This document shows positions 11,088 through 61,913 of a DNA stretch of 64,000 bases, in pieces. The stretch comes from an uncultured Acidobacteriota bacterium. Its GTDB lineage: Bacteria > Acidobacteriota > Vicinamibacteria > Vicinamibacterales > UBA2999. A program made the translations under genes and the position numbers. The notes beneath the pieces are model-generated. The model searched no databases, was not told the DNA's origin, and was given only the letters and a program-made list of their open reading frames with translations. The first letter of the stretch is position 1, and each line of letters starts with the position of its first letter. Location: contig CAVVTC010000005.1 in assembly GCA_963751025.1 (NCBI GenBank), positions 312,304-376,303 on the forward strand, read 5' to 3'.

Positions 11088-11185
11088 GTGAGTCAAGGCT
11101 CATGGGAAGTCTAATTCGGGCTTCGCAACCAGCAGCACGGCAGAAACGCGGATCACGGTGAAAGCCATCAACATCTCTCCAAGGT

Positions 11186-12822: not shown

Positions 12823-12878
12823 GCGATTGCGCGCCGCCCAGTAGGACGGCAGCAGGAGATACGGGAAGGCAAGGTCGC

Positions 12879-12944
12879 GGTCCGGCTAAAGCCGGACACT
12901 ACGACAGAGCCGGGCGCCCCGAAGTGTCCGGCTTTAGCCGGACC
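12879..12944. repeat. Pair of inverted GTCCGGCT-NN-AGCCGGAC hairpins (BIME/REP-like) between the ABC ATPase and permease genes
   Basis: The sequence ggtccggctaaagccggacac ... gtgtccggctttagccggacc has the same 8-nt stem as 6046-6063. The two hairpins also pair with each other. Confidence 0.8.
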
Positions 12945-12948
12945 GATG

Positions 12949-13702: not shown

Positions 13703-13735
13703 GTGTTGGTCTCCGGCCCGTTCACAACGACGGCC

Positions 13736-15368: not shown

Positions 15369-15465
15369 CGCAGATGGATCTACGATTCGTTTATCGGCCC
15401 TTCGACGGGCCGGGGGCAGGCCCGGGCCTGGCCTGTGCCAGGCCCTCACAACCCCATGGCTTACC

Positions 15466-27958: not shown

Positions 27959-28151
27959 CTACCTGACGTGACTGACTGCGCATGACTTCACATGTCCACG
28001 AACCGCGGAGACGCGGAGACGCGGAGGCTTTCTTCCGTCAATGACTGCACGTGCAGTCACCAAGAAAAGAATCCTCCGCGCCTCCGCGCCTCCGCGGTTT
28101 CGTGAACAAGAGCAGTCACGTGCAGTCATCGTGAGCAGCATGTGCGAGTCA
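27959..28151. repeat. Copy B of the ~180-bp palindromic element, inverted relative to copy A
   Basis: The sequence is gtgactgactgcgcatgacttcacatg..cgcggagacgcggagacgcggagg..gactgcacgtgcagtc..cctccgcgcctccgcgcctccgcgg..cagtcacgtgcagtcatcgtgagc..gagtcac. It occupies the whole spacer between the GT4 N-terminus and the stop at 28149. Confidence 0.85.
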
Positions 28152-29942
28152 CGTAATCTCCATGTGAAGCGGCGCACTGGCCGCTCCAGCGCCGCGCACA
28201 CCTGCCGGATCTGCACTTCGACGTTGCCGTTGATCGCCGGGCTGCTGAGGACCACTTCGTCCACCCTGTAGGCGCGCATCACCTGCTCGAGCTGATCGAG
28301 CGGACCGTGCACCGGCACGCCGACGATCCAGCGGTGCGCCTTCAGCGGGTCGTCGTCGATGAATCCAATCGGGTTCATGCTCCAGGCGGCATTGGCGCGC
28401 ATCTCGCGCACCAGCAGCTGGCCGAAGCCGCCGGCGCCGTAGACGAGGACGCGGCGGCTCTGCTTGTTGCGCGTCCGAGGCCACCAGGTTCATCATCTGG
28501 AACGACACGCGCGTGGTGATGATGGCCGCGGCCAGCAGCAGCGCGTCGAGGACGAACACGACGCGCGAGAACCCTCGCCGCGATAGAGGTAGTACGAGGC
28601 CACCACCGCCAGCAGCGATCCGATGCCCACGCCCCGGACGACCGCCGTGAGATCGCGCAGGCCGAACGTCTCCCACGATCGCTGATAGAGACCGGAGCCG
28701 TAGCAGCGCCGCGAGCTTGCACCCGAGCACGACGGGCAGCGAGGCGGTGAAGTACGGCAGGAACGGGTCGAGGCTCTCGCCGTCGAAACGCAGCCGGTAG
28801 GCGGCGTAGTAGCACACCGTGATGAGGACGAGATCGAGCAGCACCTGACCGGCATGCCAGCGGAACGCCAGGTCCTTGAGAAACGGCGCGAACGACGACT
28901 TCTGCAGCGCGACGAAGTCCTGCGCGTTGTAGGCCGGCACGCGCGCGAGGTAGATGCCGATCAGGATGACGATCACGCCGAACAGCGCGACGAACGGCAG
29001 CATCGGCTCGACGGCGCTGAATTTCTGCAGCCCCCACGCGGTCATGCCGCCGACCAGGCCGAAGAGATACAGAATCCGCACCGCGCTCCGCTCGGAGAAG
29101 CCGAGCGACACCAGCCGATGCGAGACGTGATCGGTGCCGCCCTTGCTCGCCTTGCGCCCGGCGAGCCGCCGCAGCACCAGCACGAACGCCGTGTCGAACA
29201 GCGGCACGACGAGGATCAGCACGACGAGCACCGCCGGGCTGACGAACGCGACGCGGGCGTTGAAGATCGGCACGAGCGAGGCGCCGGCCAGCACCGCGCC
29301 GATGAACAGGCTTCCGCAGTCGCCCATGAACAGCCGCGCCCGCGGACGGTTCCAGTAGAGGAACCCGACCAGCGCGCCGGCCAGCGCGACGAGCAGCAGG
29401 ACCAGCATCGAGCCGAGCGAGGGAGCCAGGAGCGCGGCGAGAAACGCCGTGGCGATGAGCGCCACGCCCGTCGCCAGGCCGTCCATGTTGTCGAGCAGGT
29501 TCAGCGCATGGCACATGCCGGCGAACCACACCGTACCGAGCAGCGTGTAGCTCCACGGCAGCGCGCCGGCCGGCTCCGCTCCCGCGAGCGCGAAGACCAG
29601 GAAGGCGCCGATCGCCAGCGACGCGACCAGCTTGGCAATCGGCGACAGCTGCAGGCGGTCGTCGAAGAAGCCGACCACGAACATCGCCAGCGCCGCCAGG
29701 AGCACCCACGCCCACGCCGACGCCTGCGACGCGGAGTCCGGGCTGATCAGGCCCACGATCGTGAACCCGACGATGGTCGCCAGCGCGATCGCGATCCCGC
29801 CCATCGTCGGCGTCGGCTTGGTGCTCCAGCGATCCGGCCGCGGCGGGACGACCGCGCCGATCACCGGCGCGACGCGGCGCACGGCGGCACCGAGCGCAAC
29901 GGCTGTCGCCGTGGCGATCACGAAGCTGAGGAGAGCAATCAC
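28149..29942 (-). CDS. WecA/MraY-family polyprenyl-phosphate N-acetylhexosamine-1-phosphate transferase. It is fused to a C-terminal TM + Rossmann-like extension. There are at least 3 frame changes and the 3' end is ambiguous (28149, or read-through to 27959).
   Basis: Motifs are FFDDRLQLSP, NLLDNMDGLA, FMGDCGSLFIG and VPLFDTAFVLVLR. Extra TM helices follow. Then RRVLVYGAGGFGQLLVREMRANAAWSMNPIGFIDDDPLKAHRWIVGVPVHGPLDQLEQVMRAYRVDEVVLSSP. Confidence 0.8.
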   Translation of the reverse strand: MIALLSFVIATATAVALGAAVRRVAPVIGAVVPPRPDRWSTKPTPTMGGIAIALATIVGFTIVGLISPDSASQASAWAWVLLAALAMFVVGFFDDRLQLSPIAKLVASLAIGAFLVFALAGAEPAGALPWSYTLLGTVWFAGMCHALNLLDNMDGLATGVALIATAFLAALLAPSLGSMLVLLLVALAGALVGFLYWNRPRARLFMGDCGSLFIGAVLAGASLVPIFNARVAFVSPAVLVVLILVVPLFDTAFVLVLRRLAGRKASKGGTDHVSHRLVSLGFSERSAVRILYLFGLVGGMTAWGLQKFSAVEPMLPFVALFGVIVILIGIYLARVPAYNAQDFVALQKSSFAPFLKDLAFRWHAGQVLLDLVLITVCYYAAYRLRFDGESLDPFLPYFTASLPVVLGCKLAALLRLRSLSAIVGDVRPARSHGGRPGRGHRIAAGGGGLVLPLSRRGFSRVVFVLDALLLAAAIITTRVSFQMMNLVASDAQQAEPPRPRLRRRRLRPAAGARDARQCRLEHEPDWIHRRRPAEGAPLDRRRAGARSARSARAGDARLQGGRSGPQQPGDQRQRRSADPAGVRGAGAASAPLHMEIT

Positions 29943-29958
29943 AAAGCGGATGTGTAAA

Positions 29959-31675
29959 TCACGAATTCACAAGCTGCGGCGTGCGCGCCGCCTTGTCGCG
30001 GAGCACGAAGGGCCCCCTGCCAAGGATGCCGTCGCAGATTGTATCCAGTCCGTCGGACTCCCCGGGAAGCAACTGCCGCAGGCGTCGAGCTTGAGCCGGT
30101 AGATCGGATAGCCCGCCTTGGGCTCGATAAACGGCAGCGGAATCATCCGGTTGAAGAAGAAATGGTAGGCGTAGCGCCGCGCCCGTGAGAGCTGGGCCGG
30201 GCCAAGCCGCTCCGGGAACGGCAGACGCTCGAGGATCCGGAAGTATTCCTCGGGTGTCTGGCGTCGTGGGTCAGGCCCTTGTTGCGAATCCACGCCTCGC
30301 CGGCGACGATGACCGGCAGCCCCACGCTGGTCAGCTCGACGCCCATCTTGGTGCCGTAGATGATGGCGCTGTTGCACAGCGACATCAGCGCGTAGGTGCT
30401 CATCCCGCTCTCCGGCGGCACGACGAGGATGTTCGGCGCGCAGCACGGGTATGTGCTTGCGCAGCTCACCGAGGATCGGCTGCCGCGAGGGCGGGAATCC
30501 GCTGATCTCCGCGGGATGGACCCGAACGAGCAGCTGCAGATCGGGCCGCGTCGCGAAGTACCGGCACGTCTGGACCAGCCACTCGAGCATGTTCGGGAAC
30601 GCGTTGGCCGGGTAGTGCAGCTGCGCGTCCCACGACACGTTCGTCAGCAGGCCGATCACCGGACGGTCGGCGATCGAGCCCGATCGTCGTCGCGATGTCC
30701 GGCGCGTCCTGCGTCGTCGGGCGATGGAACACGATCCAGTCGAACATGCCCTCGCGCCGGCTGGCGAGGTACTGCATCAGCTCGCGCTCCTGCGCGGCGG
30801 TGAGCTCGTGGCCCTCCCACTGCGACGTCGGCTCGGTCATCAGCGTGTGGTGATAGGTGTCGTCGTGGCTGAAGATGAAGCGCCGCTTGCGGTAGGCGAC
30901 GTTCCAGGTGGAGACGCTGACGCGCTCCTGCCGCGCGACCTCGCCGACGAGGCCCCACGGCACGTAGATGCCGTGCGTGAAGACCGCCGACGAGAACCCG
31001 ACGGCCTTGATCAGCCGGCGGGTCGCGAACGTCGTCAGCAGCGCCGACTCGAGATAGCGGCGCAGCACGGCCTCGCCGCGCGGCTCGTCGTCGAGCGAGC
31101 CGGTCGCGAAGAATCGCAGCGCGCCGGCGTGGGCGTGCTCGCCGATCGCCAGGCCGTCGCAGCGTGAAGCCCTCGATCTGATCGTGCGGCAGCGTGGTCG
31201 CCATGCGCCGCGCCTCGGCGCGATGGTCGGCGGTCAGCCAGTCGCCGTAGCGATGGACCTTGAGCCCGAGCTGCGCGTAGACGCGTTCGGCCGGCCACTG
31301 ACAGTCGCGGCACAGATCGCGCGACGGCCCGTGCTCGACGAACCTGGCGACGTTGGGATAGAGCGAGGCTTCGCACTCAGCGCACGCCGTCATCGCGCCG
31401 TCGCAGAGCAGCGCGTGCACCTCGGCGCCGCGGAAGGTCAGGGCCGCGGCCAGCGCGCTTTCGAGCGTCACGGCATGCGCGTACGAGCCGATCGAGGTGG
31501 CCATCAGCACGCGCGGGCCGCCAGCCGCGGCGGCGCGCGCGGACTGCCAGCGCTCCGGATCGGCGGCGACCAGTTGACGCCAGTCCGGATAGGCGCCGGC
31601 ACGCGCGTGGTACCAGCGCCGCGCCAGCCGCGTCGCGCGCCAGAGCCGCGGGAAGCGGCGGATGCCGTGCTTCAT
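29959..31675 (-). CDS. Capsule-polysaccharide-biosynthesis-type (KpsS/KpsC-like, GT-B-like) protein with a Cys-rich N-terminal region, with at least 5 frame changes
   Basis: ATG 31675 opens MKHGIRRF... Later come LLCDGAMTACAECEAS..LCRDCQWP, ..LLVRVHPAEISGF.. and ..STYALMSLCNSAIIYGTKMGVELTSVGLPVIVAGEAWIRNKGLT. The sensible tail LLPGESDGLDTICDGILGRGPFVLR ends at TGA (complement of 29959-29961). Confidence 0.45.
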
Positions 31676-32358
31676 GCCGGGCGCGCCCCGATCGATCAGG
31701 CGGGCAAACTCCTCGGCCGACGGCAGCTCGCTGAAGGCGCGCCACGGACGATGCGATTCGAGCTCGTCGAGCGTGTAGCCGCCGGTCGCGACCGCAATCG
31801 TCCTCGCGCCGATGGCGTTGGCGCACTCGATGTCGTGCGGCGTGTCGCCGATGACGAACACGCCATCATCGGCAACCGGACCCGCCGCGCGCGCCAGCTC
31901 CAGCGCGCGTGTGGCAATGCGTCGCCCGGTCGCCCGCGTCCTCGGCGAACGCGCCGTCGAGGAAGTAGTGGAACAGGTCGTAGTGCGTGAGCTTGGCGCG
32001 GGCGCCGCCGCGCGTGTTGCCGGTGAGCAGGTACGACCGGACGTCGGTCCGGCCGCGCAGGTGCTCGAGAATCTCGCGCACGTTCGGGAGCACGCGGCCC
32101 TGTTTCTTTGGCAGCTCCGTCGGCAGCAGCTCCTCGTAGCGGCCGACCATTCGCCGGATGGTCGCCTCGTCGGCTGGGACCTCGAGCATCTCGAACGTGC
32201 GAACGGCGATCTGATAGTCGGTCAGGCCGGCCACTCGAAACGACGACAGCTGGAAATCCCGCTGGACGATCTCGTAGACGGCCTGCTCCCACGCCGGTAC
32301 GCCTGCCTTGCCGGTCGTCAGCAGCGTGCCGTCGATGTCCCAGAACAGATACGATCAT
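31672..32358 (-). CDS. HAD-superfamily phosphatase, with at least 2 frame changes. The stop is inferred from the ATGA overlap at 31672-31675.
   Basis: ATG 32358, then after a shift YLFWDIDGTLLTTGKAG (DxDxT), LLTGNTR and VIGDTPHDIECANAIGARTIAVATG. Confidence 0.7.
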
Positions 32359-34306
32359 GCGATCTGAGGGACCGCCCGCCGAAGGCTCGACACCAGACTC
32401 GCCACGTCCAGCTTGTGATGCGCGAGCACCTCGTCGTTGGTGCCGCACTCGGGAAGCGCCATCACGCCGACGCGCGCACACGCGCGAGGCCGGCTCGAGG
32501 CCGAGCTCGGCGATCGCCGTGGCGACCATCTCGCCCTGCCCGCCCTTCAGGTAGTGATTGTCGAGCGTGACGATCGATCGACGGCCGCCGACGATTTCGC
32601 GCAGCCACCGCAGGTCGATGCGGTTCAGCCACGGCAGGTTGACCAGGCGGATGCTGGCGCCGGTGCTCTTCTCGATCTCCTCGGCCGCCTCGAACGCGTT
32701 CGACAGCAGCCATGGGCCGTAGCCGAAGCAGATCGCATCGTCGCCATCGCGGACGATCCAGCCCTTGCCGATCTCGACCTTGTGGTGCGACGGATAGTCA
32801 AAGGGCATCGGCCACTTCACCGACACGAGGCGGAGGTACACGCTGTCGATCGCCGAGTTGACGAGCGTAGTCGACGAGCGCGCCGACCTCGGCCTCCATG
32901 CACGGCTCGAGCAGCGACGAGGTTCGGCACGCCGCGGAGCGCCGAGATGTCGCGCACCGACTGGTGCGAGTGGCCCGGACCGCCGGGCAGCAGGCCGGCC
33001 AGCGAGCCGACGTAGATGACCTTCGTGCCCTCGCTGCACTGGTTGTAGATCTGCTCGTTGGGCCGCGCCGACAGGAAGCAGGCGAACGAGTGCACGATCG
33101 GCAGCACGCCGCGGCGCGCCATGCCGCCGGCCATCGACACCATGTCCTGCTCGGCGATGCCGCACTCGACGAAGCGATCGGGGTAGCGCTTCGCGAACTG
33201 CACCAGCCCGCAGTCCTTCACGAGATCGGCGTCGAGCGACGATCAGGTTCGGTGGCGCTCGCCCTGCCAGAGCAGCGCCTGCTCGTAGGCGGCGATCAGG
33301 TTGTCGGTCTGCCGCGGCTCGCGGCGCGGATTGCGCAGACGCGTCTCGGTCTTCACCGTCGCCGAGGCCGAGCTCGGCGAACAGCGCGTTCGCGGTGACG
33401 AGCAGCTCCGCCAGCCCCTCGGTGTACTGCTGCTCGCCCGGCGCGCCCGAGTGATAGCCGTACAGCTCACCCGCCGCCATCGCCGGACCTTCCATGAAGG
33501 AGACGCCCTTCCCCTTCACGGTGTCGGCGATGATCACCTTCGGCAGGTTCTCCACCTCGTCGAGCGCGCGGAACGTCCGTTCGAGCGCGGCGACGTCGTG
33601 GCCGTCGCAGCGGACGACGTGCCAGCCGAAGGCGCGGAACTTGGCCTCGATGTCGCCGAGATCGCTGACGCTGCGGACCCAGGTGTCCGACTGAATCTTG
33701 TTGTGATCGACGATCGCGACGATCTCGCCGAGCCCGCGATTGGCGGCCGATCCCAGCGACTCCCAGAACTGCCCTTCCTGCAGCTCGCCGTCGCCGGTGA
33801 GCACGAAGACGCGGCGTTCGTTGCCGGCCAGACGGTTGGCGAGCGCCATGCCCTTGGCCTTCGAGATGCCCATGCCGAGCGAGCCGGTGTTGGCCTGGAT
33901 GTACGGCGTCTCGACGTGCGGATGCCCCGGCAGGCCGTGCAGACGACGCAGCTGGTGCAGCTTCTCGTCGGGCAGCAGGCCGAGGCCGATCAGCACGCTG
34001 TAGAGCGCGGGCGCGTCGTGCCCCTTCGACGAGAAGAAGACGTCGCACGCCTGCGGGCCCTTCGTCGAGATCGCGAATCTCGTTCAGGAACAGCCAGCTC
34101 ATGATCTCGAGCGAGCTGAAGCTGGTGCCGATGTGGCCGGACCACGCGCCGGCAATCATGTACAGCGTGTTGATGCGCGCCAGCGCGGCGAATGCGCTGG
34201 CCCGGGCCACGTCGGGCACGTTGGCGTCGAGCAGGCGATTGAACTCGTCAACGGGAACGAACTGAAGCTCGAGCGCTTCGCCCTGGTCGGTCTGTATGTC
34301 ACCCAT
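32355..34306 (-). CDS. Fused transketolase-like TPP enzyme (N-terminal TPP-binding plus C-terminal Pyr/C domains in one gene), with about 8 frame changes traced
   Basis: Motifs are GHIGTSFSSLEIM, SSKGHDAPALY, GSLGMGISKAKGMA, LTGDGELQEGQFWE and VDHNKIQSD. The second half carries ECGIAEQDMVSMAGGMA, GPGHSHQSVRDISALRGVPN and LVNLPWLNR. The stop overlaps the HAD start (ATGA). Confidence 0.8.
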
Positions 34307-34346
34307 CAGCGTCGGGCGGGTCCTGCCTTTCGGACCCGCCGGTCCT

Positions 34347-35160
34347 TTATGTTCTCACTGTTGCGAACGGTTCCTGCGTCAGCTTCGGCAGCGCGACGGT
34401 TCCGTCCGCGAGCAGGCGCTCGGCCACGATCCAGTCAAAGCGCATCGTTGATGTCGAAGCCTTCGTAGCCTTCGGTCAGGAACGGCACGAGCACGTCGCC
34501 GGCAATCGTCCGGCGCTCGCGGACGACGCGCGTCCAGGCGATCTCGAGCGACGCGTTCTGCACGTAGACCGGCGGCAGCGCCTGATACGGCGTGCTGTGC
34601 CACGGCTGTTCTTCGCGTGGGCCGCCTTCGTGGGGGCCGCCTTCGTGGGGGCCGCCTTGCAGGCGGCCCTGCCGTGCCGAATGGCAGCAGCGGAAACATC
34701 CGCTGCCCCCGCACCACCCACATCTTGCCCGGATGCTGGGCGCACTGCTCGACCGCACGCAGCGAATCGACGCCCGGCTGCGACGTGAACGCTGCCCACG
34801 CCCGCCGAATCGTCGCCGCGGTGCGAAACGGACTGGTCGGGCGCAGCAGGCTGAAACAGTCCCACGTGCGGCCCCGCGCGCCAAGCTCGGCAAGCGTGTA
34901 TTCGAGCCACTCGATGTCGGGCGACGTGTCGCTGGCGAGCGCCGCCGGACGCAGGAACGGCACCTCGGCGCCGTAGTGGCGCGCAATCGCCGCGATCTCC
35001 TCCGAGTCGGTCGAGACGATCACGGAGTCGAACACCTGCTCTCGAGCGCCGGCGCGATCGTGTAGGCAATCATCGGATGCCCGCCGAGCACACGCACGTT
35101 CTTTCCCGGCACGCGTTTGGAGCCGACTCGCGCCGGGATGAAGGCAACCGCTGACGGCAT
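34347..35160 (-). CDS. Acylneuraminate-type (NeuA/KdsB fold) cytidylyltransferase, copy 1. The frame changes at the internal tandem repeat (34617-34669) and near 34438.
   Basis: Motifs are AVAFIPARVGSKRVPGKN, IVSTDSEEIA, LLRPTSPFR and PWHSTPYQALPPVYVQNASLEI. The tail FDWIVAERLLADGTVALPKL ends at TAA (complement of 34347-34349). Confidence 0.8.
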
Positions 35161-36638
35161 CAGACCTGACTCGGATTGTGATTGATGTAGATCGTCTTGA
35201 GATCGGAGTAGACGTCGAGCGCCTGCGTCCCGGCTTCGCGCCAGCCGTTGCCGGACTGACGCAGGCCGCCGAACGGCATGTGCGGCTCGCTGCCGTAGGT
35301 GCCGCCGTTCACGACCGCGACGCCGGACTGAATCCGGTTGAGGAACGTCATCGCCCGGTTGATGTTCTGCGTGTGGATCGACGCGGTGAGCCCGAACGGC
35401 GAATCGTTGGCCAGCGCGATGGCCTCCTCGAAGCTCGAGACGCGATACAGACACGTGATCGGACCGAACAGCTCGCTGCGCGTGATCTCGTCGTTGGCGC
35501 CGACCTGCTCGATGATCGTCGGCGCCACGAAGTACCCGTCGCCGTACGCCGCGCCGGTGAGCCGCTGGCCGCCGGTGAGCACCGTGGCGCCGCGCCGCCT
35601 TCGCGCGCTCGACCGCGCCGAGCATGTTCGTCATCTGCTCTTCGTTGATCACCGGCCCGTAGTCGTCGGTGTCGGCCGTGCCGACCTTCAGCTTCTCCGC
35701 CGCGTCGACCAGCATCGCCTTGAAGCGATCGTATACCCCGTCGAACACGATGATGCGGCTGCCGGCCGCGCAGCGCTGGCCGGCATTGCTGAACGCCGAG
35801 CCGAGCGTCCACGTCACCGCATTCTGCAGATCCGCATCGTCGCAGACGATGAGCGGGTTCTTGCCGCCGAGCTCGAGACAGGTCTTGGCCAGCCGGCGCC
35901 CCGCCGTCTCGGCGATCCAGCGCCCGACCTCGCACGACCCCGTGAAGCTGACGACGGCGACGTCCGGATGCTCGACGAGCGGCGCGCCGGCCTCCTCGCC
36001 GAAGCCGTGCAGCGTCGTGTAGACGCCTTCGGGCACTCCCGCTTCGCGCGCCAGCACGCCGAAGGCCCAGGCCGAGAGCGGCGTGTCCTCCGCCGCCTTG
36101 AGAATCGCGGCGTTGCCGCAGAGCAGCGCCGGAAACGCTTTCCACGCGACGTTGGCGATCGGCGTGTTGGCGGCGATGATCAGTCCGGCGACGCCGAGCG
36201 GCTGCCGCACCACCATCGCCGCTCTTGTTCGGCACCGCGCTGGTCGTCGTCTGGCCGTAGAAGCGGCGGCCCTCGCCGGCGACGAAGAACCCCATCTCGA
36301 TCGCCGCGTCGGTCTCGCCAAGCGCGTCCTTGCGCGACTTGCCGGTCTCGCGCGCGACCAGATCGGCGATCGCGCCGCCGATGCTCCTGCATCAGCATCG
36401 CGATCTGGCGGAGGATCTCGCCGCGCTTGACGACCGTCGTCGCCGCCCACGCCGGCTGCGCCTTCTTCGCGCACTCGACGGCGGACTGGACGTCGGCGGC
36501 GCTCGAGCGCGCCACGCGGCAGCACTCGCGGCCGGTGGCCGGATCGATCTTCGAAAAGGTGCGGTTGTCGGCGGCGGCACGCTCGTGGCCGCCGATCTGG
36601 TTCGGGACAGTCGCCGGGATCGAGAGATCGATGCTCAC
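35160..36638 (-). CDS. NAD(P)-dependent aldehyde dehydrogenase, with at least 3 frame changes. The start is GTG 36638 or ATG 36686.
   Basis: Motifs are KKAQPAWAA, ANVAWKAFPALLCGNAAILKAAEDTP, FTGSCEVGR, ELGGKNPLIV, FSNAGQRCAAGSR (catalytic Cys) and GSEPHMPFGGLRQSGNG. Confidence 0.85.
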
Positions 36639-36728
36639 GTAGTCACCACTGGAGCATTGTTGATCCAGGCGTAGTAGGGGAACCACTCCGTAAAGTACCG
36701 TCTGGACGCTGCGACGCAGCGCCGGCTA

Positions 36729-37544
36729 TCACCACGCGGTGAAGCCCCCGTCGACGCGCAGCTCGTGGCCGGTGACGTACGACGAGGCCGGCGAGGCGAG
36801 GAAGATGAGCGGGCCCTTGAGATCCTCGGCATCGGCCATGCGACCGAGCGGCACGCGCGCGCCGTACTTCGCCTTGAACTGATCGTCCTGACCCGCCAGC
36901 ACGCCGCCCGGCGACAGCGTGTTCACGCGCACGCCGCGGCCGGCCCAGTGCGTCGCGAAGAACTTGGACAGGTTGACGACCGCCGCCTTCGACGCGCCGT
37001 AGGCCGGCGACTTGATGAACGGCGCGTTCCCGGCGAGGTGATCGTAGAAGTGCGGGTCCGGCGACACCGAGGCGTAGAGCGAGCCGATGTTGATGATCGA
37101 CCCGCCGCCGCGCTGCCGCCATCCGCTCGCCGAACACCTGCGTCACCTGAAACGTGCCGAGCAGATTCACCTCGACCATGCGGCGGAACTCGTCGATCGG
37201 CAGCTCGTGCAGATGGTGCCGGCCGCCGGGACTGTCGGGCGGCTGGTCGATGCCGGCGTTGTTCACGAGGATCGACGGCTCACCGAGCGCGCTCGGCGAC
37301 GCGCCCGCGGCGGCCTCGATCGACTCGCGTCGGTGATGTCGCAGTCGAAGCACTGGAGCGCCGTCGCCGGCGCAGCCGCGTCAGCTCTTCGAACCGCGGC
37401 GGTCGGGGACGCGCTGCCAGAGTCGAGGGCGGCGACGCGCGCGCCCGCTTCGAGCGAGCGCCTCGGTCCAGACGGCGCCCAGCTTGCCGCAGGCGCCGGT
37501 GACGACGGCGATGCTGGTTGTCGAGGCGAAAAGCGTCCGCTCAC
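36729..37544 (-). CDS. Short-chain dehydrogenase/reductase, with at least 2 frame changes. One lies in the homopolymer at 37529-37532 just after the GTG start.
   Basis: Motifs are IAVVTGACGKLG, ILVNNAG, YGASKAA (YxxxK), VRVNTLSPGG and SSYVTGHELRVDGGFTAW. GTG 37544 overlaps a TGA (GTGA). Confidence 0.8.
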
Positions 37545-38621
37545 GAAGCGCGCGAACTCGGCGTTCGGACTTGCTCAGCACGTCGAACGACAGGAAGTCG
37601 TCCTCGTGGAGCGGCTTGAGCGTCGTCCGGCCGATCACCGTGTCGAGCTCGTACGGCGGAATGCCGCCGCCCGGCGACTTCATGACGATGTCCTCGGGGC
37701 CGAGCACGTGACCGCTCGGCAGGTCGCGCGCGACGACCAGGCTCTTGCCCATCTTCACGATCGGCGCACGCTCGCTGTCGTAGATCTTCTTCGTGCCGTC
37801 GCCCATCGCCTTGAACGTGCGCTCGAGGTCGCGCACCATCTTGCGCAGACCGACCGGCTCGAGCGAGAACGCGTGGTCGGTGCCCTTCATCGCGCGGTTC
37901 AGCGTGAAGTGCTTCTCGACGATCCGCGCGCCGAGCATGTAGGCGGCGACCGGCATGGCGATGCCGTTGTCGTGGCTCGAGAAGCCGATGACCGCGTCCG
38001 GGAAAGCGATCGCGGTAGGTCGAGATCACGCGCAGGTCGAGCTCCTCGAACGCCGCCGGATACCCGGCGGTGCACTGCAGGATGGCCAGCTGCGGGTTGA
38101 TCGGCATGATCGCGTCGTAGGCGCGCTGCACGTCCTCGAGCTGCGCCCCGCCGGTCGAGACGATCATCGGCTTGCCGAACGACGCGACGTGCTTCAGCAG
38201 CGGCGTGCTCTTGAGGTCGCCAGAGGCGATCTTGTACGCGGGGACGTCGAGCGCTTCCAGGAAGTCGGCGCTGGCCATGTCGAACGCCGTCGCGAAGAAG
38301 TCGACGCCCAGCTCTTTCGCATAGGCCTGGAGCTCGATGTACTCGTTCGCGACCGAACTCGAGGAACTCGCGATGCTCGCCGTAGGTCGCGCCGAAGCTG
38401 TTCTCGTTGTCGTACGGCTTGTCGTAGGCGGCGCGGGTGTAGAGGCCGCGGTTGTCGCGCTTCTGCAGCTTGACCGCGTGCGCGCCGGCCAGCTTCGCCT
38501 CGCGGAACAGCTCGCGCGCCTTCTCGAGGCTGCCCTGATGGTTGTGGCCGATCTCGGCGATCACGTAGCACGGCGTGTGATCGCCGATCGCTCGCGAGCC
38601 GATGTTCAGTGTCCTGGCCAT
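37541..38621 (-). CDS. NeuB-family ulosonic acid synthase (N-acetylneuraminate/legionaminate/pseudaminate-synthase-like), with at least 2-3 frame changes. The 3' end is inferred from the GTGA overlap.
   Basis: GGAGA RBS followed by ATG 38621. Motifs are CYVIAEIGHNHQGSL, AHAVKLQKR, YKIASGDL, MIVSTGG, LQCTAGYP, GFSSHDNGI and ARIVEKHFTL, followed by a SAF-like tail ARDLPSGHVLGPEDI. Confidence 0.85.
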
Positions 38622-38632: not shown

Positions 38633-39558
38633 TTAGGTGCGAACCACGGGCCGCAGCTGCGCCACCAGCTGATCCCATCCGTACTCGGCCGTGCGCGATC
38701 TCGCGCGCCGCGCGGCCGATCCGCTGCGTCTGCTCGACGTCCGGCAGCCGGTCGCACAGGTTGATGTCGATCACGTTCTGCATGTGGGCGAGCCCGGCCG
38801 GCGAGTGCTCGTCGAGGTTGGTGATCACCGCGCAGCCGACCTCCATCGCCGCGTTGACGGTGGTGTTGTTCGCGCGCAGGCCCTTTTCGAAGAACGCCGC
38901 GAGGAACGTGCAGTCCATCAGGTGATTGAAGACCGCCGTGTCGGACAGGTAGCCCATGAAGTAGACCTGCCCGTTGAAGATCGACTGCAGCTCCTCGAAC
39001 CGCACGACGAACGAGCCGTCGAAGCTGGTGTTCTCGTGCAGCGCCGTCGAGACGTACACCGAGTAGCTCTGGCCGGTGGCGTCGAGCAGGTCGCGCAGCC
39101 GGCGGTAGAGCGGCACGCGGATCTTGTGCGCCATGCCGAAGGTGAACACCGACAGCTCGGTCCGCTGGAACCGCTGCGGGTTGAGGATCGTGCCCGGGCA
39201 GAACAGCTCCTGGATGTCCGGGCGCATCGGCCGCAGCTGGGTGAAGAGCTCGCTGTTGCCGCAGTACACCTTCGCCGCCGCGGCGACCAGCCGCTGCTCG
39301 ATCTCGGTCCCGTCGAACGCGTGCAGAAACAGCTCGAACTGGCCCGACCGCGAACTGGCCCACAGGTCGAGATCCGCCGCATCGGCCGAGTCGAACTCCG
39401 AGAGCTTCAGGGACAGGAGCGGGCGGCGATGACTGCCGAGCTCGACGGCGCGCAGACCCGACCACGGGAACGTCGAGATATTTGGCCAGAATCGCGTTGA
39501 ATTTCGCGATCCCGCACGTCCACGGGTTCAGGTGATAGCCGGCGATACAGTCGATCAT
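38633..39558 (-). CDS. Hypothetical GT-B-like glycosyltransferase-type protein, with at least 2 frame changes
   Basis: MIDCIAGYHLNPWTCGIAKFNAILAKYL.. Later comes VYVSTALHENTSFDG.. Then NTTVNAAMEVGCAVITNLDEHSP (GT-B C-terminal look). The tail EYGWDQLVAQLRPVVRT ends at TAA. Confidence 0.4.
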
Positions 39559-39594: not shown

Positions 39595-41298
39595 TTACCG
39601 AAAACACGGCAGGCCGGTCATGCGGTAATGCCCGGCCGCGGCGCGTCCCCGGAGCGTGAACACCTGAACCGGAGGTCCGGCTGGCGCCGGCAGGACGCCC
39701 GCGCGTTCGTACGACGCCATCACGTGATCGTGGATCAGCCGGAACTGCGGAACGAAGTGCGAGCTGTACGAGCGCTCGTCATCGAGCAGCACCACGGGAA
39801 CCGATTCGCGTCGCATCCGCGCGAGCGTGAGCTGCTGATCGCTCTCGAGCGTATAGAAGCCCGGGCGGAACGTCGGCTGGCCACCGGCGAACGAGCGCCC
39901 GGCGATCGCCAGAATCTCCGGCGCGTCGGCGACGACGAGCACACGGTCGGCGGGAGCCGTGCACAGACGCACGTACTCCGCGGCGTTCGGTTCCGGATCG
40001 GCTGGAGCGCCCGCGGGTGAAGACACAGGTGGAGGCAGCGCGCGAAGCTCCGTGGTCACGGCCGCGAGCCGCCGGCCGATCTTCTTGACGCTGTCGCCGA
40101 GTCCGGTCGTGTCGAGCTCGTGCCACACGCTGCCCGTGGTGGCGAGCGCCATCATCGTCGGCACCAGCACCAGCGCTGCGGTCGTCCACACCAGCCCACG
40201 CAGCCATGGCGCGCCATCCTGAAACCGTGACGGCAGCCAGGCCGCGAGGATGGCGAGGGGAGCGCCCAGATCGCCGAATCTGGCGCCGAAGTTGTTCCGC
40301 AGGAAGAAGCGATCGAGGATCAAGGCGAGCACGGCCAGGCTGGCGATCACGGCGCGGGTTTGCCGGGTGTCGAGATTCCTGGCGCGGGGTGCGCCGATGA
40401 GGACGAGCAGCGCCACGATCGGGATGGCGACACTGACGTCGTAGAGCCACGCCACCGCGTTGCCTTCCTCGGACAGAACCGACCAGATGCCGCCCGTCGA
40501 GGGCCCGAAGTGCGGCCAGCGGAACGTCGTGCGGTTGGCCTCCTGGGCGACGAGCGCGCGAGCCGTTTCGAGATAGGAGCCGATGCCGACGTAGTGCTGG
40601 ATCGAGTAGACAGGTAAGGCGAGCAGCAGCACGACCGTGCCCGCGTAGACCGCCAGCCGGTCGAACGCCTCGCGCCAGCGCGGCGTTCCCAGCAGCATCA
40701 GGATCGCGACCGGCGGTGCGAGATAGACCAGAAAGTCGTGGCGAAACAGGAACGCGACCGCGGACCACGCGCCGAGCTGCGCCGCACGCACGCGAGTCGG
40801 CTGCCGCACGTAGCGGAGGAACAGCGCCGCCGCGACGGCAAACACCAGTACTTTCGAATAGCCATACAGCTTGGTGGAGGCGAACAGCGTCGCGATCGTC
40901 GCGATCACCGCGGTCGCCCTGCCCGAGAGCTCGGTGGCGGTGCGAGCCGTGAGCGCGAGCGCGAATGCGAGCAGACCCACGGTGAAGACGGCTTCCGCGA
41001 AGAACGTCTCGCCGATCACGCGCTGCGCGAGCGCCGGCAGCTCGTAGGTCAGCGCCGGCCACGCGCCCATGACGCCGGCATCGGCGAAATCCCTGAGCGG
41101 ACGCTCGCCGTGCGCAACGGCCGACGCGCCCAGGGAGTAGATGAAGTGATCGCCGTCGAAGCCGCCGAGCGCGCCGCCGAGCGCGTTGAAGCGGTACAGG
41201 AAGGCCAACAGGAAAATGGCGATCGGTACGACCAGCGCGTGTCTGGCTGCGCGAGCAATCGCCTGACGGAACCCGGGCCGCCTCAAGGCGGCCCCCAC
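39595..41298 (-). CDS. P-family polytopic membrane protein, paralog P1 (567 aa, intact). Function unknown; proposed to be GT-C-like.
   Basis: Family motifs are YRFNALGG..GGFDGDHF, GERPLRDFAD, KLYGYSKV, AFLFRHDF, LRNNFGARFGD, CTAPADRVLVVADAPEI..RSFAGGQPTFRPGFY, and a terminal TGLPCFR. Confidence 0.7.
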   Translation of the reverse strand: MGAALRRPGFRQAIARAARHALVVPIAIFLLAFLYRFNALGGALGGFDGDHFIYSLGASAVAHGERPLRDFADAGVMGAWPALTYELPALAQRVIGETFFAEAVFTVGLLAFALALTARTATELSGRATAVIATIATLFASTKLYGYSKVLVFAVAAALFLRYVRQPTRVRAAQLGAWSAVAFLFRHDFLVYLAPPVAILMLLGTPRWREAFDRLAVYAGTVVLLLALPVYSIQHYVGIGSYLETARALVAQEANRTTFRWPHFGPSTGGIWSVLSEEGNAVAWLYDVSVAIPIVALLVLIGAPRARNLDTRQTRAVIASLAVLALILDRFFLRNNFGARFGDLGAPLAILAAWLPSRFQDGAPWLRGLVWTTAALVLVPTMMALATTGSVWHELDTTGLGDSVKKIGRRLAAVTTELRALPPPVSSPAGAPADPEPNAAEYVRLCTAPADRVLVVADAPEILAIAGRSFAGGQPTFRPGFYTLESDQQLTLARMRRESVPVVLLDDERSYSSHFVPQFRLIHDHVMASYERAGVLPAPAGPPVQVFTLRGRAAAGHYRMTGLPCFR

Positions 41299-41311
41299 GT
41301 CAGAGTCGTAT

Positions 41312-41812
41312 TCACCACCAATCGCGGCGCGGATTCGGATCGGTACGCGCCACGGCTCGCGCGGCGCTCATGAGATTGTCGATCGATCCCGGACCGCACG
41401 CAGGCCCGGCCGCGGCGGCCATTTGCTGAATGCCAATGAGCGCCGCGGGGATCGCAGCGGCCCGGTCGTCGCCGATCACCGTGATACCGTAAAGATGCCG
41501 TGCCAACTGCGTGCGCTGCGATTCATCGAGCCAGGTGGTTCCACATGCGACGAGCGCTTCGGCGAGCGCGCGGCTCGCCTTCGCGTCGGGCGGGAACGGC
41601 CCGAACGAGCGCAGTCGTTCGTCGATGTCAACGGCAGTGGACGACGGCGATCCCAACCGCGCTGCAAGGTCGATGATCTTCGCCTCCTGTTCCGGCGATG
41701 GCGGCGGCTCAGCCGTGGGCCGCCAGAGGGCAAGCGCGAGCGCCGCGATGACGACCATCGGCAGTGCCTGCAGCCACCCCGCGTACGGGTTGTGATCCGA
41801 CGTTTCGTTCAT
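41312..41812 (-). CDS. Small N-terminally anchored hypothetical protein upstream of P1
   Basis: Intact, 166 aa. The TM is LQALPMVVIAALALALW. The soluble part is Ala/Leu-rich. I do not recognise a family. Confidence 0.45.
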   Translation of the reverse strand: MNETSDHNPYAGWLQALPMVVIAALALALWRPTAEPPPSPEQEAKIIDLAARLGSPSSTAVDIDERLRSFGPFPPDAKASRALAEALVACGTTWLDESQRTQLARHLYGITVIGDDRAAAIPAALIGIQQMAAAAGPACGPGSIDNLMSAARAVARTDPNPRRDWW

Positions 41813-50697: not shown

Positions 50698-50712
50698 AAG
50701 AAAATCCCATCG

Positions 50713-50830
50713 CAGAGGACGCAGGGGAGCAGAGGTACGCAGAGGCTTGCGACGGGTGGACCCGCGCGTAGCGCGGGCATGGATCGAGCCCGCGCCTCCG
50801 CGATCTCCGCGATTGGTTTTCTCCGTGACA
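50713..50830. repeat. Degenerate third copy of the periodic-arm palindromic element
   Basis: The left arm is gcagaggacgcaggggagcagaggtacgcagaggc. The centre is cccgcgcgtagcgcggg. The right arm is gcgcctccgcgatctccgcgattggttttctccgtgac. It has the same 8-bp CTCCGCG periodicity as copies A and B. Confidence 0.55.
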
Positions 50831-61177: not shown

Positions 61178-61208
61178 GGCTTTACGTTAGACGCAGAGAC
61201 GAGGCCCG

Positions 61209-61913
61209 TCACTGAGCGCCCCGATCCTGGAGCCGGCGCTCGGCTTCGGCCCAGTCGTCTGGAGTGTCAATCGACAGCGAGTCTGCGGCGTGGACGAGGA
61301 GCGGCTGGCAGCGCTCGCCGTAGATGGTGCCGAAGCGATCGAGCGTCGCGCGCCAGCACGCGTAGACGGTGCCGTCTCGCGAGTAGGCCGGCCGCGCATC
61401 CTGGCGACGGGTCAGCGCGCGCTCCCTCGGGCAGGAACGGCCGCAGCACGCCCGTCCTCGATGCGCATCACGTAGTCGGGCGACAGATGCCTGGGCAGCT
61501 CGACCACGGTCACGACCGAGTCGGCCTTCGTCTCGCGCAGCATCGTCACGGCGTCGCGCACGTGCGAGGGACGGCGAAGCGGCGAGGTCGGCTGCAGCAG
61601 CACGATCACGTCAGGCGTCCAGCCGCTCGCGGACAGCGCGTCGATCGCGTGCCGCACGACCGGCAGCATCGGCGTGTCGTCGGCGGCCAGCGACGCGGGC
61701 CGCATGAACGGGACCTCGAGACCGGACCGTCGGCCCGCGTCGGCGATCTCGTCGGAGTCGGTCGAGAGCACGATCCGATCGATCACGCCCGACTCACGCG
61801 CGGCGCGCGCGGTGTACTCGATGAGCGGCCGGCCGGCCAGCGGCCGAACGTTCTTTCCGGGCACGCCCTTCGATCCGCCCCGGGCCGGCACGATGGCGAG
61901 GACGTCGACTCAC
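61209..61913 (-). CDS. Acylneuraminate-type cytidylyltransferase, copy 2, with at least 3 frame changes
   Basis: GTG 61913 overlaps the P6 stop (GTGA). Motifs are LAIVPARGGSKGVPGKN, VLSTDSDEIA and LLQPTSPLR. Later come VLRPFLPEGA.. and ..SLSIDTPDDWAEAERRL, ending at TGA (complement of 61209-61211). Confidence 0.75.

Follow-up and report, generated by a model that had tools for sequence, protein, structure and literature searches.

Why should a NeuB-type synthase and a NeuA-type cytidylyltransferase be encoded side by side with a short-chain dehydrogenase (SDR), an aldehyde dehydrogenase (ALDH), a transketolase-like enzyme (TK) and a HAD phosphatase, and what could such a set of enzymes make? 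The genes lie within the window, which is the whole stretch of 64,000 nucleotides analysed here. The block is a translationally coupled operon in a large surface-glycan locus of a soil Vicinamibacterales acidobacterium and, judging from its sequence, it probably makes a new CMP-activated, side-chain-modified 3-deoxy-2-ulosonic acid by means of an unusual transketolase. No published description of the operon was found.

Organisation of the gene block

The block and the genes associated with it are as follows:

38636..39558, minus strand: U307, a 307-aa protein; 2 frameshifts
37541..38621, minus strand: NeuB-family PEP-aldose condensing synthase, NeuB TIM barrel plus SAF domain; 3 frameshifts
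36729..37544, minus strand: classical SDR of the sugar-acid/polyol dehydrogenase type (Pfam adh_short); 8 frameshifts
35160..36638, minus strand: NAD(P)-dependent ALDH (Pfam Aldedh); 3 frameshifts
34347..35160, minus strand: CTP_transf_3 cytidylyltransferase (CMPt) of the NeuA/KdsB/PseF type (Pfam CTP_transf_3); 3 frameshifts
32355..34306, minus strand: single-chain 'short' mammalian-type transketolase-like ThDP enzyme (TK), 648 aa (Pfam); 7 frameshifts
31672..32358, minus strand: HAD_2-type (C1-cap) phosphatase (Pfam HAD_2, Hydrolase, Hydrolase_like); 2 frameshifts
29962..31675, minus strand: U571, putative glycosyltransferase of 571 aa, GT-B-like and weakly Capsule_synth/KpsC-KpsS-like; 5 frameshifts
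28149..29966, minus strand: Glycos_transf_4 (WecA/MraY-type) polyprenyl-phosphate sugar-phosphate transferase with a CoA_binding_3 domain; intact 606-aa ORF
61209..61913, minus strand: second CTP_transf_3 cytidylyltransferase, a paralog (tblastn, Pfam); at least 1 frameshift

The original prediction described the six genes from NeuB to the HAD phosphatase as consecutive and coupled, and for the families and their boundaries this holds. Pfam matches in the three minus-strand frames include NeuB with SAF, adh_short, Aldedh, CTP_transf_3 and Transketolase_N/C, and the genes are colinear by tblastn with the intact orthologs of a related locus, L003 (NeuB 38612-37564, SDR 37530-36732, ALDH 36638-35163, CMPt 35157-34365, TK 34306-32358 and HAD 32354-31691). 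ATG codons at 38621, 34306 and 32358 provide the starts of NeuB, TK and HAD. The SDR start codon overlaps the NeuB stop, and TGATG/ATGA stop-start overlaps link ALDH to CMPt, TK to HAD (ATGA, the HAD start overlapping the TK stop) and HAD to U571, whose start overlaps the HAD stop. What does not hold is their status as open reading frames, as all six are frameshifted in the window, none is intact and the mechanical ORF list contains only fragments of them.

Frameshift-aware protein-DNA alignment places 26 frameshifts in the 6.95 kb of these six genes, those in NeuB falling near 38345, 37993 and 37560, and the GC3 phase shifts every few hundred bases. The block could thus be a truly degenerating pseudogene cluster in this strain, from which nothing is made. 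In keeping with decay, intact genes lie elsewhere in the window, including a 1.1-kb DegT gene with zero frameshifts (46029-47171) and ORFs at 39595-41367 and 28149-29966, and so uneven a density of frameshifts is unusual for uniform sequencing error; the exact sequence is also found in no public run, the best share of words being 0.25. The nature of the shifts nevertheless argues against decay. They are nearly all +1 insertions, with a single extra base in the window accounting for 22 of the 26, whereas bacterial gene decay is deletion-biased. Frameshift-aware alignment reveals no in-frame stop inside the six genes other than the terminal stop of CMPt itself, identity to the L003 orthologs is 82-89% over the full length, the corrected-frame GC3 is ~0.9, and frame switching is frequent throughout the window. 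Moreover, the extra base is missing at 38344, 38000, 36222, 33358, 37364, 34441 and 32350 in related contigs built from Illumina data of four soil or rhizosphere runs, and NeuB, SDR and ALDH are unbroken in a 95.6% identical locus (L001). Because the related contigs lack the extra base at these seven sites, the 26 frameshifts look like assembly or sequencing errors, with decay being very unlikely; if they are errors, the operon is to be taken as functional in the organism.

A cassette conserved across phyla

All of the gene families in the block are common and each gene alone would be annotated generically, and hence the TK, ALDH and SDR might simply belong to an unrelated neighbouring pathway. 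This is contradicted by the synteny data. The order U307-NeuB-SDR-ALDH-CMPt-TK-HAD-U571 is found intact in Vicinamibacterales (Acidobacteriota) genomes, with identical gene order in dozens of independent genomes, and the arrangement extends to at least five further phyla. The core NeuB-SDR-ALDH-CMPt-TK is present in Obscuribacterales (L080), a gammaproteobacterium (L082) and Sideroxyarcus (L083), a Latescibacterota locus (L077) has NeuB-SDR-CMPt-TK without ALDH, and the cyanobacterium Cyanosarcina (L075) has ALDH-CMPt-TK-HAD-U571. In the cultured Streptomyces sp. NBC_01237 (L084), NeuB-SDR-TK are contiguous and ALDH and CMPt are absent.

The six-gene combination is far beyond chance and, because the gene order recurs across Vicinamibacterales and other phyla, the block is considered to be one functional unit, as had been predicted. 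A search of gene neighbourhoods for NeuB with transketolase and ALDH finds the combination in several phyla, where TK, ALDH and SDR accompany NeuB and CMPt. Given that the arrangement is kept in many species-level genomes, that the genes share stop/start overlaps and that the transketolase represents a distinct subfamily rather than the housekeeping enzyme, chance adjacency is scarcely credible. The block is likely to represent a single conserved route to a non-canonical CMP-ulosonic acid.

The composition of the cassette does vary. Eleven related Vicinamibacterales loci keep U307-ALDH-CMPt-TK-HAD-U571 with NeuB and SDR absent within 10 kb, and three additional ones have SDR but not NeuB, so that the model needs the missing NeuB/SDR to be encoded elsewhere in those genomes. 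CMPt lies directly upstream of TK in every related locus showing both, and no other two genes of the cassette are so tightly linked. As the presence of the HAD_2 phosphatase follows that of TK and U571, not that of NeuB, the role assigned to it in the pathway below is uncertain. The partner enzyme of the TK changes with lineage; in this block it is the ALDH, whereas L077 has a Zn-ADH/GFO fusion and Streptomyces a class-III aminotransferase. Some related loci contain inserted methyltransferase and further tailoring genes, the cassette of the gammaproteobacterial MAG directly follows flgK and a flagellin gene, and in Cyanosarcina an ABC-2 transporter adjoins it.

The NeuB-like synthase and the cytidylyltransferases

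NeuB is 85-95% identical to at least 120 metagenomic proteins among the matches listed, and the few named relatives among them are from Vicinamibacterales or Acidobacteria. Among PDB entries it best matches SpsE and N. meningitidis NeuB. Against NCBIfam it scores 291 bits with NeuB_NnaB (cut-off 399.65) and 232 with PseI (cut-off 340.25), whilst CMPt reaches 138.6 bits with PseF (cut-off 205.7). The cassette NeuBs and CMPts of four other phyla also fall under the NCBIfam equivalog cut-offs, and with all scores below threshold these enzymes lie outside the characterised equivalogs, in agreement with the atypical system first proposed. A Gly/Pro/His/Glu repeat is inserted in CMPt at about 34609-34677. 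The second NeuA-type gene is present where it was expected (tblastn match 61900-61224); its frame-corrected translation matches Pfam CTP_transf_3 and is 47% identical to the block CMPt over the N-terminal 150 residues.

A transketolase with an altered substrate channel

The TK contains the Pfam domains Transketolase_N, Transket_pyr and Transketolase_C, and its best PDB match is human transketolase (E=3e-60). In a comparison of 43 orthologs from several phyla, H37, H77, H110, N185, H258, E366, F389 and F392 never vary, and 42 retain D155. R318, S345, H416 and R474, which from known transketolase structures we take to be phosphate-binding, are uniformly replaced by a gap, D, L and S, respectively, and D424, presumably the contact for the acceptor 2-OH, is replaced by P. 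The corrected translation from the window and the Streptomyces enzyme have the same residues. The replaced positions are those that engineers mutate in E. coli transketolase for non-phosphorylated or non-hydroxylated aldehydes. All five have been described as active-site residues around the substrate adduct (PMC8016368). The residue pattern points to an intact cofactor and catalytic site beside a remodelled substrate channel, with the phosphate-binding residues all lost.

The dehydrogenases and phosphatases

The nearest NCBIfam models to the SDR, all under cut-off, are D-mannonate oxidoreductase, gluconate 5-dehydrogenase and KduD, and its nearest PDB entries are gluconate 5-dehydrogenase (best) and the sorbitol, galactitol and mannitol dehydrogenases. 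In these structurally solved enzymes the oxidised position is the penultimate carbon of an acyclic polyol or aldonate. The ALDH has the catalytic motifs ELGGKNP and GQRCAAGSR, and its nearest NCBIfam models, 2,5-dioxovalerate and alpha-ketoglutarate-semialdehyde dehydrogenase (416 and 412 bits, under cut-off), have the omega-aldehyde of a 2-keto-3-deoxy acid as their substrate. Both assignments are thus suggested by below-cut-off similarity. The only PDB relative of the HAD phosphatase is 2hcf, the function of which is unknown. KdsC-sized small HADs with a Hydrolase_3 match adjoin NeuB in L077, L080 and L082, and that of L077, the one scanned with NCBIfam, exceeds the KdsC subfamily cut-off (111.2 versus 106.95).

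A proposed pathway and its alternatives

The preferred but tentative route, in which the TK acts after NeuB, would lead to CMP-3-deoxy-heptulosaric (Dha-like) acid. We infer the step order from family resemblance and gene co-variation, and every chemical step is likewise inferred. The NeuB-like synthase would condense PEP with a sugar phosphate of central metabolism, such as hexose 6-phosphate, and the HAD phosphatase would free the terminal CH2OH. Oxidation of the penultimate carbon by the SDR would generate a terminal -CHOH-CO-CH2OH ketol, the donor motif of transketolase. The TK-like ThDP enzyme, with a channel that would no longer bind phosphate or an acceptor 2-OH, would then cut off the last two carbons to leave an aldehyde; the model names no C2 acceptor. 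The ALDH would oxidise this aldehyde to a second carboxylate, thereby turning a nine-carbon precursor into 3-deoxy-hept-2-ulosaric (Dha-like) acid, which CMPt would activate with CMP and U571 and U307 would transfer to the glycan.

An aldehyde is placed after the TK step because the TK partner varies by lineage, and a phosphorylated NeuB product is favoured because a KdsC-type phosphatase adjoins NeuB in L077, L080 and L082. A proposed precedent is the conversion of 5-keto-D-gluconate by transketolase to tartaric semialdehyde and by a semialdehyde dehydrogenase to tartrate (PMC7970118), and an engineered mutant transketolase is reported to cleave 5-keto-gluconate to tartaric semialdehyde (PMC12016104). 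The original prediction raised, as one possibility, a two-carbon transfer that would build the aldose before NeuB. The complete loss of the TK phosphate-binding residues speaks against this, as do the ulosonate-phosphate phosphatase beside NeuB in distant versions of the cassette and the changing companion of the TK.

The main rival to the late action of the TK is nonetheless an order in which HAD, SDR and TK-like enzyme act before NeuB to give an unusual aldehyde for condensation with PEP, for instance via 6-phosphogluconate, gluconate, 5-keto-gluconate and tetruronate (tartaric semialdehyde). The end product would again be heptulosaric-type, and the ALDH would only clear a two-carbon by-product or have a side role. 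The contiguity of NeuB-SDR-TK in Streptomyces even without ALDH and CMPt, and gluconate 5-dehydrogenase as the best PDB match of the SDR, are consistent with such a supply of substrate. So too is the AHBA pathway, a precedent in which a dedicated transketolase, Rif15, feeds an enzyme that condenses PEP, the aminoDAHP synthase RifH. The cleavage of 5-keto-gluconate, as proposed (PMC7970118) and as reported for an engineered mutant (PMC12016104), also fits. Against it, the phosphorylated NeuB product implied by the KdsC-type phosphatases calls for a phosphorylated aldose, which is not expected from a TK without a phosphate site; the lineage-specific ALDH, ADH or aminotransferase is left without a role; and loss of Asp424 fits a 2-hydroxy aldehyde such as tetruronate poorly. 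Action of the TK before NeuB is considered rather unlikely.

It is more doubtful still that the product of NeuB, HAD and CMPt is a conventional nonulosonic acid (Kdn-, Leg- or Pse-like), with SDR, TK and ALDH providing a small hydroxy-acid of the glycolate/glycerate/tartrate type for later attachment to the acid or glycan. Nonulosonic acids bearing glycolyl or glyceroyl groups exist, and the tailoring genes inserted in some loci would suit such decoration. SDR, TK and ALDH also correspond to the enzymes of the proposed tartrate route (PMC7970118). However, the conserved core is without an acyl-activating enzyme or acyltransferase, NeuB and CMPt do not fall within the canonical equivalogs either, and it is CMPt and TK that are most tightly paired.

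Relationship to known systems

The 9-phosphate route to sialic acid or Kdn (vertebrate NANS-NANP-CMAS; Kdn-9-P synthase, phosphatase and CMP-Kdn synthetase of Bacteroides thetaiotaomicron) similarly brings together a NeuB-family synthase, a HAD phosphatase and a CTP_transf_3 cytidylyltransferase, and the NeuB-adjoining phosphatase of distant cassettes is of the KdsC/Kdn-9-P-phosphatase type. In contrast, the block NeuB and CMPt score under all equivalog cut-offs, the Vicinamibacterales phosphatase is HAD_2 type, and SDR, TK-like enzyme and ALDH have no counterpart there. With the Kdo/capsule linker pathway (KdsD/KpsF, KdsA, KdsC, KdsB/KpsU and KpsC/KpsS) the block would share the logic of sugar phosphate plus PEP, phosphatase, CMP activation and Capsule_synth-type transfer, along with the weak Capsule_synth signal of U571, a tentative assignment, and the ABC-2 transporter of Cyanosarcina; its aldolase is NeuB-type, not KdsA, and arabinose-5-P isomerase is absent from it.

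The proposed tartaric-acid route (PMC7970118) employs the same three enzyme types to oxidise the penultimate carbon, remove C2 and oxidise the aldehyde. There, the transketolase step is a housekeeping side activity or the work of an engineered mutant, whereas the block TK is a dedicated conserved subfamily that presumably acts on an ulosonic acid later to be activated with CMP. Canonical transketolase (EC 2.2.1.1) shares the three-domain architecture, ThDP, Mg and catalytic His/Glu residues, but both mammalian-type and split bacterial enzymes differ from the block orthologs at the four phosphate positions and the acceptor-2-OH Asp. Finally, as in Pse/Leg flagellin islands and nonulosonic O-antigen or capsule loci, NeuB and a CMP-transferase reside within glycan loci, although the block core does not contain their set of dehydratase, aminotransferase, acetyltransferase and hydrolysing epimerase.

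Flanking glycan genes

U307 has no Pfam or NCBIfam match, and is 94% identical to its L003 ortholog (tblastn, frameshift-aware alignment). It is found in nearly all related loci, even where NeuB and SDR are missing, always just upstream of the block, and is taken to be a putative glycosyltransferase from a GT-B-like E-x7-E-type motif spotted by eye. U571 has only a weak Pfam Capsule_synth match (E=0.045); among its listed orthologs three have a precomputed PF05159 match and one is named 'capsule biosynthesis protein'. Its AF2 model (pLDDT 63) retrieves generic GT-B folds with Foldseek (TM 0.2-0.35), and it co-occurs with TK in Cyanosarcina and Sideroxyarcus. The Glycos_transf_4 gene is an intact high-GC3 ORF whose L001 and L003 orthologs carry PF00953 and PF13727, and its product presumably initiates synthesis of the glycan. 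DegT, dehydratase and hexapeptide-transferase genes also occur near the block in the window and its relatives; they are separated from it and are followed by an ArnC-like GT2.

Condition of the six genes in the window

The window has a G+C content of 67%, and G+C by codon position places all coding between about 28 and 64 kb on the minus strand. The original prediction of six coupled genes in 31672-38621 was right about the families, their order and their start and stop coordinates, but the genes are not open reading frames in the window, since 26 frameshifts interrupt them. Both the mechanical and the GC3-filtered ORF lists show the six genes as fragments only, none in the form predicted, and this seeming absence was resolved by Pfam searches in three frames and by frameshift-aware alignment. 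Pfam, run on the three minus-strand frames of 30.4-39.6 kb, recovers pieces of NeuB, SAF, adh_short, Aldedh, CTP_transf_3 and Transketolase_N/C in one frame. With the genes of L003, an intact related locus that serves as reference (with L004, DATDOE010000040.1), tblastn finds every gene colinear with its counterpart but split into 2-6 frame pieces.

Frameshifts in the genes of the block (31672-38621, minus strand), counted by frameshift-aware protein-DNA alignment
NeuB-like synthase (NeuB): 3 frameshifts
Short-chain dehydrogenase (SDR): 8 frameshifts
Aldehyde dehydrogenase (ALDH): 3 frameshifts
Cytidylyltransferase (CMPt): 3 frameshifts
Transketolase-like enzyme (TK): 7 frameshifts
HAD phosphatase (HAD): 2 frameshifts

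One extra base in the window accounts for 22 of the 26 frameshifts. In the same alignment the full-length amino-acid identity of the six genes is 82-89%, and no in-frame stop is found within them apart from the terminal stop of CMPt itself; neighbouring genes overlap by ATGA or TGATG. Real decay producing 26 indels would be expected to bring stop codons and an eroded codon bias, neither of which is present. Against the Illumina-assembled close relative L002 (93.6% identity) the window mostly carries single inserted bases, which lie outside homopolymers. Four independent metagenomes from soil or rhizosphere supplied Logan contigs that lack one base at 38344, 38000, 36222, 33358, 37364, 34441 and 32350, positions at frameshift sites. 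A second close relative, L001 (95.6% identical), has intact NeuB, SDR and ALDH genes and is broken elsewhere. We conclude that the frameshifts of the block are assembly or consensus errors; real pseudogenisation of the block is less likely.

Frame switching is frequent across the whole window, and its density is very uneven. The block has about one frameshift per 270 bases; a DegT gene (46029-47171) and two ORFs of 590-606 aa (39595-41367 and 28149-29966) have none. Co-assembled strains that were collapsed locally in a long-read assembly could account for this. The exact sequence of the window was found in no public run (best word share 0.25), so that the frameshifts can be tested only against contigs of related strains and not against source reads. 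The window sequence itself is of poor quality.

The synthase and the cytidylyltransferase

The cassette falls within the known family of CMP-ulosonic-acid pathways, its new part being a dedicated transketolase subfamily. Both in the window frames and in the orthologues, the NeuB-like protein consists of a NeuB TIM-barrel (PF03102) followed by a SAF domain (PF08666), and its closest solved structures are SpsE and the NeuB of N. meningitidis. CMPt shows the CTP_transf_3 fold and, near its N-terminus, the CTP-binding motif (for the L003 orthologue, PF02348 at E=6e-21), and the window frame matches as well. The suggestion that the block makes a non-canonical acid agrees with the position of both proteins outside the characterised clades, as judged by scores under the NCBIfam cut-offs for NeuB_NnaB, PseI, PseF and KdsB. 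The L003 synthase reaches 291 bits against a cut-off of 399.65 for NeuB_NnaB and 232 against 340.25 for PseI, whilst its CMPt scores 138.6 against 205.7 for PseF and at most 49 against 155-281 for the KdsB models. The cassette synthases of four other phyla and of Streptomyces are likewise below the cut-offs (247-310 bits for NeuB_NnaB, 203-258 for PseI), as are the distant cytidylyltransferases with the PseF model (133-142 bits, cut-off 205.7).

At about 34609-34677 the CMPt gene contains a repeat rich in Gly, Pro, His and Glu, GGPHEGGPHEGGP. In related soil contigs this stretch is skipped or other sequence takes its place, and it represents either a hypervariable loop or an artefact of assembly.

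Distribution and gene order of the cassette

In L003 the intact order is U307 (a putative glycosyltransferase, 38636-39558 in the window), NeuB, SDR, a 409-aa insert, ALDH, CTP_transf_3, a 648-aa transketolase, HAD, U571 (the putative glycosyltransferase of the downstream flank, 29962-31675 in the window) and Glycos_transf_4. A scan with the transketolase as query, limited to one genome per species, gave 325 relatives, the best 80 loci of which were examined. Gene content was compared by maps of each locus; automated ORF clustering over all loci was dropped because mis-called or frameshifted ORFs merged families. Among these best 80 of 325, nearly all Vicinamibacterales loci have the same block. 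The cassette also occurs outside the phylum.

Cassettes outside the Acidobacteriota
L075, Cyanosarcina: ALDH, CMPt, TK, HAD, U571
L077, Latescibacterota: NeuB, SDR, CMPt, TK
L080, Obscuribacterales: NeuB, SDR, ALDH, CMPt, TK
L082, gammaproteobacterium, MAG BTQY01000052.1, locus 1215-11950: NeuB, KdsC-like, SDR, ALDH, CMPt, TK
L083, Sideroxyarcus: NeuB, SDR, ALDH, CMPt, TK and U571
L084, cultured Streptomyces sp. NBC_01237, 1.6-Mb linear plasmid NZ_CP108509.1 (record 809003-830874), locus 4586-15440: contiguous NeuB, SDR, TK

Because the cassette recurs in these six loci, the transketolase and dehydrogenase genes do not belong to an unrelated adjacent pathway, and the original prediction stands in treating the block as one unit; chance adjacency of its genes is less likely. 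The reconstructed NeuB has at least 120 relatives among metagenomic proteins at 85-95% identity, the few named ones being Vicinamibacterales or Acidobacteria MAG proteins, and on this sequence conservation the operon appears to be among the most conserved glycan modules of the Vicinamibacterales. Vicinamibacterales are widespread in soils, and to our knowledge next to nothing has been established about their surface chemistry.

NeuB and SDR are both absent within 10 kb in 11 Vicinamibacterales loci (L008, L013-L016, L018, L021, L026, L032, L071 and L078), and NeuB alone is absent within 10 kb in three (L045, L058 and L063), of which L045 has an unassigned 351-aa gene between SDR and ALDH. All of these loci retain U307-ALDH-CMPt-TK-HAD-U571, and a low-threshold search for a diverged NeuB or SDR found none where these genes are missing. 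The MAGs CAVRQR01 and CAWFTF01 are among the genomes whose loci have neither NeuB nor SDR. The HAD_2 gene tracks TK and U571, not NeuB. Both this and the missing NeuB and SDR genes weigh against the route proposed below.

The transketolase-like enzyme

Pfam and NCBIfam identify the PP, Pyr and C-terminal domains of a transketolase in TK, whose best solved match is human transketolase, although it scores below the NCBIfam cut-off (392 bits against 488 for the best transketolase model). A DXS-like reading was rejected, as the full length aligns best to transketolases. When 43 orthologues are aligned to the human enzyme, H37, H77, H110, N185, K244, H258, E366, F389 and F392 are invariant, and D155 is present in 42 of the 43. 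Residues R318, S345, H416, D424 and R474 line the substrate in human transketolase (PMC8016368). All 43 orthologues lack R318 and have S345 replaced by Asp, H416 by Leu, D424 by Pro and R474 by Ser (human numbering), a pattern that the Streptomyces TK shares. In the human enzyme R318, S345, H416 and R474 hold the phosphate and Asp424 the 2-hydroxyl of the acceptor. Judged by its sequence, TK forms a separate conserved subfamily, whose members should catalyse the transketolase reaction with a substrate that lacks both a phosphate at the usual distance and a free hydroxyl beside the aldehyde carbon. Biocatalysis groups obtain transketolases for non-phosphorylated substrates by mutating the same positions, and if the chemistry holds TK would be a natural scaffold of this kind.

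The dehydrogenases, the phosphatase and U571

The nearest relatives of the SDR are gluconate 5-dehydrogenase and the sorbitol, galactitol and mannitol dehydrogenases, together with models for KduD and mannonate oxidoreductase. Such enzymes act on open polyol chains and oxidise the carbon adjoining the terminal CH2OH. The closest models for ALDH are the 2,5-dioxovalerate and alpha-ketoglutarate-semialdehyde dehydrogenases, and a PDB search at the overly strict threshold of 1e-90 gave it no match. All of these SDR and ALDH assignments are under the family cut-offs, which is a further weak point of the proposed route.

The HAD of the window is a 227-aa HAD_2 protein with a C1 cap, has no KdsC match and is not a small capless HAD of the YrbI family (type C0). 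Though not a family member, it may work like an ulosonate-phosphate phosphatase such as KdsC or Kdn-9-P phosphatase. KdsC-sized HADs (164-185 aa) with a Hydrolase_3 match stand beside NeuB only in the distant cassettes L077, L080 and L082; that of L077, the sole one of the three scanned with NCBIfam, passes the KdsC subfamily cut-off and also matches the Kdn-9-P phosphatase model.

U571 has a weak match to the Capsule_synth (beta-Kdo transferase) family (PF05159, 13.7 bits at E=0.045, the cut-off being 20), and a precomputed PF05159 match exists for 3 of its listed orthologues. No match was returned by a PDB sequence search, and its AF2 model is mediocre (pLDDT 63), with Foldseek returning generic GT-B folds only. 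U571 is probably a GT-B-like protein with a weak Capsule_synth signal, its link to KpsC/KpsS being putative.

A possible route to a heptulosaric acid

The KdsC-type HAD beside NeuB in L077, L080 and L082 implies that NeuB would yield a phosphorylated ulosonate from a sugar phosphate, and it lends indirect support to the reaction expected of the NeuB family, in which PEP is condensed with a 2-acetamido or 2-hydroxy hexose or its 6-phosphate. The partner of TK differs by lineage: it is ALDH in most, a Zn-ADH/GFO-type fusion in L077, which has no ALDH, and a class-III aminotransferase in Streptomyces. Aldehydes are typical substrates of all three families, which suggests that TK yields an aldehyde that is itself the pathway intermediate. 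A clue to the order of steps is that NeuB and SDR are adjacent and coupled.

In the proposed sequence NeuB would condense a sugar phosphate with PEP to an ulosonate phosphate, and a phosphatase would free the terminal CH2OH. The SDR would then oxidise the penultimate carbon to give a ketol, from which TK would remove two carbons to leave an aldehyde, and ALDH would convert this to a second carboxylate. After CMP activation, U571 and U307 would transfer the acid within a WecA-initiated glycan. With a nine-carbon acid of the Kdn/Neu5Ac type, the 8-keto side chain read from C9 would be 3S,4R as in normal transketolase donors, the ring oxygen would occupy the position of the would-be donor 4-hydroxyl, consistent with the loss of Asp424, and the route would end in a C7 diacid of the Dha (3-deoxy-hept-2-ulosaric acid) class. 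Tentatively, and with the odds somewhat against it, the cassette can be read as the first known route to this acid, in which a dedicated TK, naturally independent of phosphate, shortens the side chain of a NeuB-made nonulosonic acid that has been oxidised at C8, and ALDH supplies the second carboxylate ahead of CMP activation.

The chief rival takes the steps in the order of the original prediction, in which SDR and TK act first to make the aldehyde for NeuB, for example a tetruronate from gluconate, the end product again being a heptulosaric-type acid. The AHBA pathway is a precedent for it, but such an order leaves unexplained both the KdsC-type phosphatase and the variable aldehyde-processing partner. 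A decoration model is less likely. Chain extension, with TK adding C2 to an aldehyde, was rejected, since the irreversible ALDH would have no role in it and an enzyme to make the aldehyde would be lacking.

A route from 5-keto-gluconate to tartrate has been proposed on the same three-enzyme logic as the truncation route (PMC7970118), and an engineered mutant transketolase is reported to cleave 5-keto-gluconate (PMC12016104). How Dha is made, and in what form it is activated, is still given as unknown (PMC3355719, PMC12168206), and a Dha-type heptulosaric acid is reported in rhizobial LPS cores by a reference cited in PMC5713287.

In the searchable full-text literature no description of the combination of NeuB, transketolase, ALDH and cytidylyltransferase was found, co-mentions of transketolase and nonulosonic acids being incidental, and a search for Vicinamibacter with sialic acid gave nothing relevant. 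Should the model hold, the truncation of the chain to a diacid is also new: ulosonic acids would be diversified by shortening of the carbon chain with a ThDP enzyme, and the cassette would be a candidate route to heptulosaric acids, the origin of which is still to be explained in plant rhamnogalacturonan-II, in the walls of green algae and in rhizobial LPS. The cassette is conserved, uncharacterised and directly testable, its chemistry being what we infer, and the Streptomyces cluster offers a cultured strain for experiments.

Genomic contexts and the surrounding glycan locus

In L082 the cassette comes immediately after flgK and a flagellin gene, as in a flagellin glycosylation island; that of L075 adjoins an ABC-2 transporter, and that of L083 is accompanied by a GT4 and a Wzx-like flippase. 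In L084 the NeuB-SDR-TK genes are followed by an RraA-like aldolase, an RmlD-like reductase, a HAD_2 phosphatase and the class-III aminotransferase. Its neighbours include an HmaS-like dioxygenase, an FMN-dependent (Hmo-type) dehydrogenase, an aminotransferase, an AMP-binding enzyme, an O-methyltransferase, a P450 and a LuxR regulator, and the cassette appears to be reused there in a probable natural-product cluster. The differing neighbours of these four loci indicate reuse for different end products.

Outside the block, the window forms a large glycan locus with two dehydratase/epimerase genes, DegT, an ArnC-like GT2, methyltransferases and a CTP_transf_like gene. It also holds the following.

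61224-61900, minus: second CTP_transf_3 cytidylyltransferase, with at least one frameshift
about 60000-61180, minus: protein of about 400 aa with the motif GPWLGEVGFELLYWVPFLRWF, after the second CTP_transf_3 gene
about 49606-50734, minus: paralogue of the GPWLGEVGFELLYWVPFLRWF protein, about 10 kb away

These genes suggest that the same locus also encodes a second CMP-activated sugar, together with its transferases. Also present are polytopic membrane proteins, at least five paralogues of 560-640 aa that have the N-terminal motif NDHY...G(E/Q)xPxRDF in common.

39601-41367, minus: paralogous membrane protein
43452-45061, minus: paralogous membrane protein
52704-54305, minus: paralogous membrane protein
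54552-55884, minus: paralogous membrane protein
62014-63537, minus: paralogous membrane protein

None of those in the window has a Pfam match; they share 28-67% identity with two proteins of this type in L003 and are possible GT-C-like glycosyltransferases or polymerases.
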